From Candidatus Nanohaloarchaea archaeon (lineage in GTDB: Archaea; Nanohalarchaeota; Nanosalinia; Nanosalinales; Nanosalinaceae), in assembly GCA_042218075.1 (NCBI GenBank), contig JBDGRK010000009.1, positions 18,136 through 82,135 of the forward strand: 64,000 nt of DNA, written 5' to 3'. The first letter of the stretch is position 1, and the number at the start of each line of letters is the position of its first letter. Shown here in pieces: positions 8,308 through 34,074 of the stretch. The translations under genes were made by a program, and so were the position numbers. The notes under the pieces are model-generated. The model made no database searches and was not told the origin of the DNA. It worked only from the letters and a program-made list of their open reading frames with translations.

Positions 8308-9593
8308 CAGAGATAAACCTCGACTCACTCAAAGGAATGTACGACCGCTATCCTGAAGAGTGGAAGACCTGGAAGTATATTATGGAAGTGGTTGAGGAGA
8401 CTGCGGAAGAGTTCGGCTTCCGGGAGATCGATTTTCCGAACGTCGAGAGACAGGAGCTCTGGACTTCCAAGGAGAGCAACGAGATTCTGGATCAGATGTA
8501 CGCCTTCGAGGATAGGGGTGGAGAGAAAGTTACGCTTGTGCCTGAGCAGACACCCAGCAAGGCGAGGCTGATCCAGAAGAGAAAGAACCTGAAGAAGCCG
8601 GTGAAGTGGATGTGCACCTCTAGAGCCTATAGATACGAGGAGGTGAAGAGAGGTCGCGACAGGGAGTTCAGGCAGTCCGACTTCGATATCTTTGGAGTGG
8701 AGTCAGTGGAGGCAGACGCAGAGATAATAGCGGTCGCAGCCACGGTATTCAAAAAACTGGGCCTGGAGGACAGAGTGGACTTCAGGATGAATGATCGCCA
8801 GCTCCTGGAATCGCTGCTTGAATCCCAGGGTATAGAGAAGACCGAGGAAGCGATGAAAGTAATAGATGACAGGGAGAAGATGAATAGGCAAGAATTCCTT
8901 GAAGACCTGATGGATAGAGGATTATCGAAGGAGGAAGCTGAAAAAGTGGAGGAAGTCACGGATATCTCCGGTCCGATAAACGAGAAGATTGAGGAACTCA
9001 GGCAAAAGGCGCCTGAAGAGGTTGAGGAATCCGTTGAAAGGATGGAGAGTCTTGCAGAGGCGCTGGAATCCTACGGAGTCGCTGAGATGTGCAGGATTGA
9101 TTTATCGATCGTCAGAGGTCTGGCATACTACACAGGACTTGTATTCGAGGCTTTCGATTCAGAAGGAGAGCTGCGAGCACTCTTCGGAGGAGGCCGCTAC
9201 GACAACCTTGTCGGAGAGTTTGGGGAACAGGATATTCCTGCAATAGGTTTTGGTTTCGGTTACTCTCCGACAATCGAGCTGCTGAAGAGAGAGGATCGAT
9301 ACCCTCTGAAAGAGATACAGACGGATGTATACGTTCTGTCGGTCAGCGAATCGGTGAGAGACACTGCCCTCGACTTCGCAACCAGGTTGAGGCGGAAAGG
9401 GCTAACAGTGGAGACCGATCTATCCGGAAGAAGTTTCGGTGAACAGCTGGAGTACGCTGATGCGATGAATGCGGAAAAAGTTCTGATCGTGGGTGAGAGA
9501 GACCTGGAGAATGATGAAGTAACTCTTAAAGACATGGAGACCGGCGAGGAAGAAAAAGTGGATAGAGAGAAAGCAATCAAGAGGCTGGAATAG
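8304..9593 (+). CDS. hisS: Histidyl-tRNA synthetase
   Basis: GRDREFRQSDFDIFG, IVRGLAYYTG and GGGRYD motifs; anticodon-binding domain. Confidence 0.97.
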   Translation: MTEINLDSLKGMYDRYPEEWKTWKYIMEVVEETAEEFGFREIDFPNVERQELWTSKESNEILDQMYAFEDRGGEKVTLVPEQTPSKARLIQKRKNLKKPVKWMCTSRAYRYEEVKRGRDREFRQSDFDIFGVESVEADAEIIAVAATVFKKLGLEDRVDFRMNDRQLLESLLESQGIEKTEEAMKVIDDREKMNRQEFLEDLMDRGLSKEEAEKVEEVTDISGPINEKIEELRQKAPEEVEESVERMESLAEALESYGVAEMCRIDLSIVRGLAYYTGLVFEAFDSEGELRALFGGGRYDNLVGEFGEQDIPAIGFGFGYSPTIELLKREDRYPLKEIQTDVYVLSVSESVRDTALDFATRLRRKGLTVETDLSGRSFGEQLEYADAMNAEKVLIVGERDLENDEVTLKDMETGEEEKVDREKAIKRLE

Positions 9594-27548: not shown

Positions 27549-27644
27549 ACCCGAGAATCAATAATTCAAACCTTGCGTGCCACTCCAAAATCGCAGAAGT
27601 GATTTTGTGCGTTGGCAGAAACTCTTGGATAGAGTTTCGCGAAG

Positions 27645-27778
27645 AGCGTAACGAGTTGGACCGGCTGGGATTTGAGACCCCGAACTTCAGAAAGTTCGAT
27701 CATAAGAATGCATGGGTCCGGGAGACCCATGCCTTGCGTACCAACTCAGCGTAACGAGTTGGACCGGCTGGGATTTGA
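27645..27778. repeat. 31-bp direct repeat of the tRNA-Ala 3' end plus trailer (27645-27675 and 27748-27778)
   Basis: AGCGTAACGAGTTGGACCGGCTGGGATTTGA occurs twice with a 103-bp period. Confidence 0.95.
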
Positions 27779-27889
27779 ACCCAGGGCCTCTTCCAAGTTG
27801 GCGTCGAAGATCGGAGATCTTCTCGAACTCCCTTCACGGAGGAAGGAAGTGATGCCAAGGAAGCGTTCTGCCAGCTGAACTACCGGCCC
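27760..27889 (-). tRNA. tRNA-Ala(GGC) with a 57-nt intron at 37/38 (27796-27852)
   Basis: GGGCCGG acceptor with G3:U70, CTTCC-TTGGCA^T-GGAAG anticodon arm, GGTTCAAATCC T-arm; intron end CCAA-CT pairs with positions 32-35. Confidence 0.93.
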
Positions 27890-33886: not shown

Positions 33887-34074
33887 TGGTCCACCCGGGA
33901 TTCGAACCCGGGACCGCCGCCTAGCCTAAAACCGCGAGCAGAGCTCGCTACCGGTGAAACCGGTAATTGCGCTGGCTTAGCGTAACAAGCCTAGGCAACA
34001 CGCAGGCCTCTCGGCAAGAATTTCTGCGTGAGGTCCGTATAAGGACGGTGCTCTAACCCCTGAGCTAGTGGACC
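33887..34074 (-). tRNA. tRNA-Ile(UAU) with a 115-nt intron at 37/38 (33923-34037)
   Basis: GGTCCAC/GTGGACC-A acceptor, CCGTC-CTTATA^A-GGCGG anticodon arm, GGTTCGAATCC T-arm; BHB formed by CTTA:TAGG helix with bulges TA^C and CT^A. Confidence 0.9.

Follow-up and report, generated by a model that had tools for sequence, protein, structure and literature searches.

A structured repeat in tRNA introns and trailers of Nanohaloarchaeota as the probable conserved end of a small non-coding mobile element

The window, by which we mean the whole 64,000-nucleotide stretch of nanohaloarchaeal DNA that was analyzed, carries genes for tRNA-Ile(UAU) and tRNA-Ala(GGC) on its minus strand; aragorn at default settings reports zero tRNAs in it, and both genes appear once introns are allowed. 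A first-pass annotation had pointed to one structured motif shared by the tRNA-Ile intron and the tRNA-Ala trailer, and to a third, interrupted copy. Read on the minus strand, the coordinates and sequences given for the first two all match, and the third copy is real as well, with the same 5′ arm and loop and a 3′ arm with CGCAA further on. The features are as follows.

33887-34074, minus strand: tRNA-Ile(UAU) gene (aragorn with introns allowed; Rfam tRNA model, 47.1 bits)
34074-34038, minus strand: exon 1 of tRNA-Ile
about 34037-33923, minus strand: intron of tRNA-Ile (115 nt, ±1)
33922-33887, minus strand: exon 2 of tRNA-Ile
33934-33991, minus strand: element inserted in the tRNA-Ile intron
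33974-33991, minus strand: hairpin 1 of this element, with 5′ arm GGCUU (33987-33991), loop GUUACGCU (33979-33986) and 3′ arm AAGCC (33974-33978)
33967-33971, 33949-33965 and 33934-33948, minus strand: CGCAA, hairpin 2 and hairpin 3 of this element
33988-33993 and 33923-33928, minus strand: first and second TAGGCT direct repeats (6 nt) around the insertion
27760-27889, minus strand: tRNA-Ala(GGC) gene with a 57-nt intron (aragorn with introns allowed; Rfam tRNA model, 54.9 bits)
27681-27762, minus strand: short-form element immediately 3′ of tRNA-Ala
27741-27762, minus strand: its hairpin 1, with CCAACUC (27756-27762), loop (27748-27755) and GAGUUGG (27741-27747)
27734-27738, 27711-27731 and 27681-27698, minus strand: its CGCAA, hairpin 2 and hairpin 3
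27653-27680, minus strand: decaying duplicate of the tRNA-Ala 3′ end (T-loop to discriminator, plus ACUC)
27573-27659, minus strand: long-form element (the interrupted copy), with 5′ arm and loop at 27645-27659
27619-27637 and 27587-27606, minus strand: extra hairpins of the long form, around the box AACGCAC (27607-27613), with GAGUGG-CA-CGCAA at 27573-27585

Archaeal BHB introns classically interrupt the tRNA after position 37, and the tRNA-Ile intron lies after A37. When the anticodon stem is fixed in the fold, the tRNA-Ile precursor forms a canonical hBHBh′, in which a 4-bp helix (CUUA/UAGG) lies between the 3-nt bulges UAC and CUA and the inner helix is GGACC/GGUUU; this constrained fold has −83.6 kcal/mol versus −87.6 kcal/mol for the minimum free energy structure. 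Without the constraint, the fold is shifted by three, since two registers are available in GGCGGCGG. The second TAGGCT copy provides the 3′ half of the BHB. In the predicted fold, the element and an older hairpin branch off inside the hBHBh′, so the insert would leave the splicing motif intact; the element sits inside the older BHB intron and is not part of the BHB motif itself. The corresponding introns of three genomes of the same genus measure 55, 55 and 56 nt and are without exactly the module 33934-33991. In addition, a contig of similar depth in run X1 joins 33922 to 33993 with 6 other letters, which indicates a close relative in the same sample without the module. Since the empty alleles differ in sequence at that spot, the TAGGCT pair is uncertain as a true target duplication. 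Judged by these alignments, the tRNA-Ile intron is a pre-existing 55-nt BHB intron that was doubled to 115 nt by one insertion.

At the tRNA-Ala locus, the first three nucleotides of the 5′ arm CCAACUC are at the same time the last three of the tRNA. A near-identical trailer copy follows tRNA-Ala(CGC) on contig C15 of the same genome, and relatives of the same genus have a tRNA-Ala(GGC) gene with neither the intron nor the trailer element. The stretch 27653-27675, an exact 23-nt copy of the tRNA-Ala 3′ end at 27756-27778, precedes the long-form element, which differs from the short form by about 60 extra nt forming two hairpins inserted after the loop. The long form is also found in the introns of tRNA-Ala(CGC) and tRNA-Thr(CGU) of the same genome, as well as in two other genera (L270, L231).

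With introns allowed, aragorn makes 37 tRNA predictions in the window's genome, most of them with introns, many longer than 60 nt and some reaching 226 nt; among the few spurious calls are a "tRNA-Pro" within an ORF and, on C10, a "tRNA-Arg" whose intron would measure 2339 nt. At least nine tRNA introns of this genome, among them the tRNA-Ala intron in the window (about 27795-27820), have a second recurrent module close to their 3′ end, a hairpin of the type GAGAAAAUC-ucu-GAUUUUCGAC, which also stands directly before partial copies of tRNA 3′ ends in the trailers of tRNA-Trp, tRNA-Ser(CGA) and tRNA-Ala(CGC).

The motif belongs to a repeat family with a defined layout, in which hairpin 1 (a 5-7-bp stem of any sequence closed by the invariant loop GUUACGCU) is followed after 1-3 nt by CGCAA, then by hairpin 2 and often by a third hairpin. 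Within the window, the loop word GTTACGCT occurs four times against 0.78 expected, a count reached by none of 100 shuffles; three of these occurrences are the copies described above, while the fourth (8529-8536, plus strand) has no complementary arms and no CGCAA and is therefore taken as chance. The composite pattern is present six times in the window's whole assembly and its reversed control not once, and a scan of the assembly for the loop word yielded seven short-form and four long-form copies. The pattern search across related genomes, proposed together with the first-pass annotation, found the composite pattern in 44 of 70 Nanohaloarchaeota genomes at up to 23 copies per genome, compared with two hits in total for the control; selection of the genomes at phylum or at order level gives the identical set. 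A covariance model of hairpin 1 plus CGCAA gave hits in 45 of the 70 genomes (191 hits summed, 0-27 per genome). The same model has no hit in G066, G064, G046, G021 and G026, which are 96-99% complete, and by this model the element is missing from whole genera and from one single-contig genome of the window's own genus. Many hits of the element lie at contig ends, and contigs also break at both loci of the window.

From the listed pattern matches, 155 distinct copies were obtained at 146 loci with flanks fetched. The loop and CGCAA are invariant in all pattern-defined copies, which come from four families, and at least four of the first five positions of hairpin 1 are paired in 150 of the 155 copies. 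The covariation of the stems, first proposed from two unrelated but perfectly paired examples, is borne out by 102 distinct copies, in which 93.5% of cells are paired versus 49.9% after shuffling, with none of 500 shuffles reaching the observed value; all five pairs change on both sides (206 cells), and controls with slid partners are 22-39% paired. Comparison with Rfam matched the motif to no family, since only tRNA was found at gathering score and the hits at E values up to 10 were at chance level. Moreover, the full-text literature searched yielded no description of the motif or of a repeat family in Nanohaloarchaeota. The element family is real, widespread and, as far as the literature searched shows, undescribed. 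A 14-base version of the pattern run against genome contigs returned, among the matches listed, single chance hits in unrelated bacteria and is uninformative on the spread beyond the phylum.

Three known structures were compared by eye and rejected. A C/D-box reading of the third-hairpin region fails on boxes that are unconserved between copies, a group I-like P1 reading of hairpin 1 on the small size of the element and the missing G-U at the splice site, and an integron attC reading on the position of GTTACGC, which is in the loop and not in the stem.

The motif had been proposed to travel with tRNA genes and to sit in either an intron or a trailer. When the 36 nt upstream of each loop were compared with 148 mature tRNA sequences, 123 of the 155 copies had a tRNA-derived upstream flank. 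The hairpin end lies just past the anticodon-loop 5′ splice site in 46 copies (starting 1-5 nt after it) and just past the tRNA 3′ end in 44, so both proposed positions hold; a further 19 copies are on the opposite strand against the tRNA 5′ end, nine follow a 5′ fragment that ends in the D-arm (D-loop break), and five lie elsewhere in sense orientation. In every class, the end with hairpin 1 touches the exon and the element reads away from it. The linkage to tRNA genes stands for the majority but is not exclusive, in that 32 copies have no tRNA match upstream; some of these follow degenerate copies of tRNA ends, several come directly after a stop codon, and some copies lie between overlapping protein genes. 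The 19 reverse-orientation copies are located between a TATA-like box and the tRNA, so that the leader transcribed there would hold the reverse complement of the element; a motif acting at the level of RNA alone does not account for these copies.

Tandem arrays of the element also exist (L011, L192). At three loci of G007 (L011, L189, L193), tandem units of 100 nt each have a TATA-like box, TTTTTTTAAGAAT, about 22 nt upstream of hairpin 1, and such units may be transcribed on their own. In the window's genome, one diverged copy lies 1 nt past the stop codon of a putative elongation factor 1-alpha gene (C10:86149), with an unannotated 140-aa ORF on the opposite strand between this copy and a putative rps10, and another lies upstream of a putative ribosomal protein L3 gene (C26:10793), the gene identities being assigned by eye. 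On the same contig as the former, a class II tRNA with at least one intron (C10:87700-88100, L001) is framed by copies of its own ends: its first 7 nt recur 52 nt upstream and its last 20 nt about 55 nt downstream. Each of these repeats is connected via a hairpin, and the upstream one borders directly on a reverse-orientation copy of the element.

Insertion is also recorded at two protein-gene sites with empty sister alleles. In G041 and G042, an element of about 105 nt separates two genes with overlapping stop and start and is flanked by a 21-bp repeat that holds the ribosome-binding site, the start and the stop; G040 has the empty single-copy junction for the G041 site, with flanks overlapping by 23 nt. 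In G019, an element of about 100 nt is accompanied by a 45-bp repeat of the gene end, and the single-copy empty junction is found in G020. The 5′ arm of hairpin 1 belongs to the insert at both sites. More generally, when the 30 nt upstream of a copy were searched for in the region 30-330 nt downstream (at least 10 nt exact), they recurred in 37 of 138 copies, compared with 3 of 138 for the reversed control. Such duplicates were found for 21 of 41 copies at tRNA 3′ ends, all six after 5′ fragments and 8 of 29 with no tRNA flank, but for none of 40 in introns and none of 18 in reverse orientation at 5′ ends.

Gapped alignment of the 36 elements with both ends defined gave duplications of 14-45 bp (median 22) and element lengths of 50-233 nt (median about 88). 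Behind tRNA 3′ ends, a duplicate is present in 26 of 45 copies; 23 of these duplicates can be placed, and 14 of them begin at tRNA position 52-54, running to the discriminator. The same 36 elements have no terminal inverted repeats (end-to-end score of 4.28 versus 4.12 for shuffled ends), and for the window's genome no distant second copy of the flank was found on the same contig. As far as sequence comparison can tell, the element is inserted, mobile DNA.

The tRNA-Thr(CGU) genes of the window's genus illustrate how such insertions bear on introns. This gene is intronless in G066 and G067, while in G069 a single short-form element makes up the entire intron of about 69 nt, which folds with a 4-bp helix and the 3′ bulge CUA, the 5′ bulge being less regular. 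The same intron is present in G068 with a decayed loop sequence, and in the window's genome the intron is 186 nt long and begins with the long form. In another genome, the 5′ arm in the intron has two possible partners, its own 3′ arm and the intron's 3′ end, the latter giving an inner BHB helix. The element family enlarges predicted tRNA introns, and in one relative it makes up a whole one.

Taken together, the motif is probably the conserved 5′ end of a family of small, non-coding mobile insertion elements of Nanohaloarchaeota. The loop and CGCAA would be what the moving agent recognizes, probably on one strand, to which the excess of G-U over A-C or C-A pairs in hairpin 1 (39 versus four) points; the element itself would be non-autonomous, with the conserved head as its recognized end. 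Cuts about two helical turns apart, subsequently filled in, would produce the target duplication. Copies would then persist at places where they are taken out of the RNA by tRNase Z, RNase P or the splicing endonuclease, and also where the duplication keeps both neighboring genes whole. The first-pass annotation had offered a conserved recognition element, either a protein-binding RNA motif or an end signal of a transposase or recombinase; that there is one conserved structured unit is upheld, and the empty sites and duplications favor the end signal over the RNA-binding motif, while a recognition role as such is our inference. Several points run counter to the mobile-element reading: a search of known enzyme families revealed no mobilizing enzyme, terminal inverted repeats are absent, duplications varying from 14 to 45 bp fit no common transposase, and the copies in introns and in reverse orientation are without a duplication of at least 10 nt. 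As well, the loop invariant in four families and the compensated stems at seemingly orthologous tRNA-Ser, tRNA-Leu, tRNA-Pro and tRNA-Thr sites could reflect a function in the cell.

These last points lead to the strongest alternative, although we hold it to be improbable: a functional RNA module, that is, a protein-binding site or a processing or stabilizing signal beside the cleavage sites of pre-tRNAs and some mRNAs, in which the loop and the pairing are under selection and mobility is secondary. It is in line with the invariance of loop and CGCAA in pattern-defined copies and with the strong covariation of the stems. Hairpin 1 also has 39 G-U pairs versus four A-C or C-A pairs, but 30 of the 39 occupy one stem position, for which common descent instead of selection may be the reason. 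The pairing of the 3′ arm extends to the discriminator in trailer copies (U opposite A73, C opposite G73), the 5′ arm of some intron copies has the option of the inner BHB helix mentioned above, and the TATA-like box before the hairpin in the tandem units of one genome would suit a transcribed module. Against this, the RNA of the 19 leader copies has the loop AGCGUAAC in place of GUUACGCU, near-complete genomes, one of them in the same genus, are without the element, orthologous tRNAs are found without it, and in one orthologous copy, that of G068, the loop sequence is gone. Nor is hairpin 2 biased toward one strand, with 91 G-U pairs on either strand and equal folding energies, and target duplications and empty sites are properties of DNA insertion. 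The reverse-complement leaders, the dispensability and the target duplications together suggest that the constraint on the loop acts in movement and not at each resting place.

A second alternative, which we regard as slightly less credible again, is that the elements are remnants or miniature derivatives of tyrosine-integrase elements entering tRNA genes (attL/attR scars, comparable to cis-mobilizable elements), the hairpin with its 8-bp center being the integrase-binding site. The stretch from the T-loop to the 3′ end and the anticodon loop are the classical crossover places of tRNA-targeting integrases; the duplicates that start at position 52-54 and the copies in the anticodon loop agree with these. 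Tyrosine-integrase genes lie just downstream of three tRNAs in the window's genome, namely tRNA-Asn (C13:15284, L037), tRNA-Pro(UGG) (C37:3650, L039) and tRNA-Pro(GGG) (C19:18299, L040), and an integrase ORF is directly downstream of three tRNAs with the element in their intron (L333, L334, L337). Integrase genes beside tRNAs are expected for elements integrated at tRNA genes. Moreover, intron gain through integration has been proposed by Sugahara et al. 2012, in the account given in PMC3293823.

However, the duplicated sequence differs at every locus and includes protein-gene ends that are single-copy in empty sister sites, so it cannot have been part of the element before insertion. With 50-233 nt the elements are small, the next ORF is an integrase in no more than 3 of the 55 copies whose flank is long enough, and 14 of the 45 element-bearing genomes, one of them a single-contig genome, have no integrase match. 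Recombination within the loop is expected to leave hybrid arms, which are rare, the stems being matched in 150 of 155 copies. A search of the contigs of the window's genome for a distant second att copy gave none, and no att repeats lie within 8 kb of four integrase-linked tRNAs. Lastly, a chance resemblance of two local hairpins has nothing in its favor beyond the shortness of the motif and is refuted by the near-zero reversed-pattern controls and the 191 model hits in 45 genomes, which leaves it practically without credit.

For the family as mobile insertion elements, the moving agent was sought among known enzyme families, and across the 70 genomes none of four domains tracks the presence of the element. 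Phage_integrase is found in 43 genomes (31 of 45 with the element and 12 of 25 without; Fisher p = 0.12), DDE_Tnp_1 in nine (p = 0.14), RVT_1 in seven (5 of 45 with and 2 of 25 without; p = 1.0) and Cas1 in three (p = 1.0). In the window's genome, the Y1_Tnp and TnpB domains had no match. A retroelement of SINE-like, target-primed type fails on the reverse transcriptase, given RVT_1 in seven of 70 genomes. As a tentative first choice, we would name staggered-cut insertion by a trans-acting enzyme; polymerase template switching is a weaker possibility, movement mediated by an integrase seems unlikely, and RNA-mediated movement still more so.

The only reverse transcriptase of the window's genome is an ORF of 389 aa (RVT_1, E = 3e-11) at C29:3784-7302 (L056), adjoining a pair of 121-nt direct repeats with 93% identity and a spacing of 337 nt, which looks like the layout of a diversity-generating retroelement. 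Concerning RNase P, its RNA is detectable in 42 of 70 genomes, so that loss of RNase P was rejected as the reason for the leader hairpins; the archaeal model finds nothing in the window's assembly. In most element-bearing genomes it yields only weak, lengthened matches of 300-465 nt; in the element-free genera the matches are strong and measure about 255 nt. Insertions may be present in RNase P RNA genes as well.

Biologically, the closest precedent is the tRNA intron transposition inferred in Thermoproteales, going by the summary of Fujishima et al. 2010 in PMC10714607. According to that summary, related introns occur in many tRNA genes of this one lineage; the protein splicing endonuclease excises them at BHB motifs, and they are considered transposable. 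The present family likewise places related intron sequences in many different tRNA genes of one archaeal lineage, but, compared with the introns as summarized there, it has a defined structured head with an invariant loop, is also found in trailers, reversed in leaders and at protein-gene junctions, and shows insertion at the DNA level through its empty sites and 14-45-bp duplications, in a host that belongs to DPANN and not to Crenarchaeota. The integrative-element att duplications of archaea (SSV and pNOB8 types), in the account given in PMC3293823, share direct repeats of tRNA parts flanking foreign DNA and a tRNA fragment beside the intact gene (as at L026 and L180). Unlike them, the insert here is about 90 nt without an integrase and its repeats are made from each target, protein genes included; integration scars as treated in that source explain tRNA-end repeats, but not repeats made from each new target. 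In addition, the same element is present at well over 100 different sites.

Known bacterial repeats and transposons provide further comparisons. The tRNA-linked or tyrT repeats of E. coli with RtT RNA (RF00391) consist of a structured unit behind a tRNA, followed by a copy of the tRNA 3′ end and sometimes in tandem, which resembles the 26 of 45 trailer copies ending in such a copy; however, the element has no RF00391 match, differs in lineage and sequence, and is not limited to trailers, since introns, tRNA 5′ ends and mRNA junctions have it as well. With MITEs it shares small size, the lack of coding sequence, multiple copies, non-autonomy, insertion polymorphism and target duplication, but it has no terminal inverted repeats, no DDE transposase that tracks it, and one conserved and one variable end, while its duplications are not short and of fixed length (21 and 45 bp at the sites with empty alleles). 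Long, variable direct repeats have a precedent in IS1634 and IS1549. IS608 has TTAC as its target. Likeness to IS200/IS605 and their palindrome-associated derivatives lies in the subterminal hairpins, a single-strand logic, the absence of inverted repeats and a TTAC in the conserved loop; in contrast, neither Y1 transposase nor TnpB was detected in the window's genome, and IS200/IS605 elements make no target duplication, which the present element does.

The entry of protein-spliced introns into archaeal tRNA genes has long been an open question, and the main precedent, that of Thermoproteales, comes in the summary cited without a mechanism. The present family offers dated, polymorphic events with exact empty sites, comprising a doubled intron, a one-element intron, trailers, leaders and protein-gene junctions, and because some members of the Nanohaloarchaeota grow with their hosts, the question becomes testable. 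In practical terms, the elements break assemblies at tRNA loci and mislead tRNA finders, as with the default aragorn run on the window. Long, variable duplications without inverted repeats or a known enzyme also point to an insertion route worth finding. A bolder reading, possible though doubtful, is that the element is a self-contained mobile BHB intron that lands at tRNA ends and gene junctions without a transposase, integrase or reverse transcriptase of known family, guided by its single-strand structure and copying about two helical turns of the target. If this were true, archaeal tRNA introns could be seen arising and growing in present-day Nanohaloarchaeota, by an undescribed mechanism.
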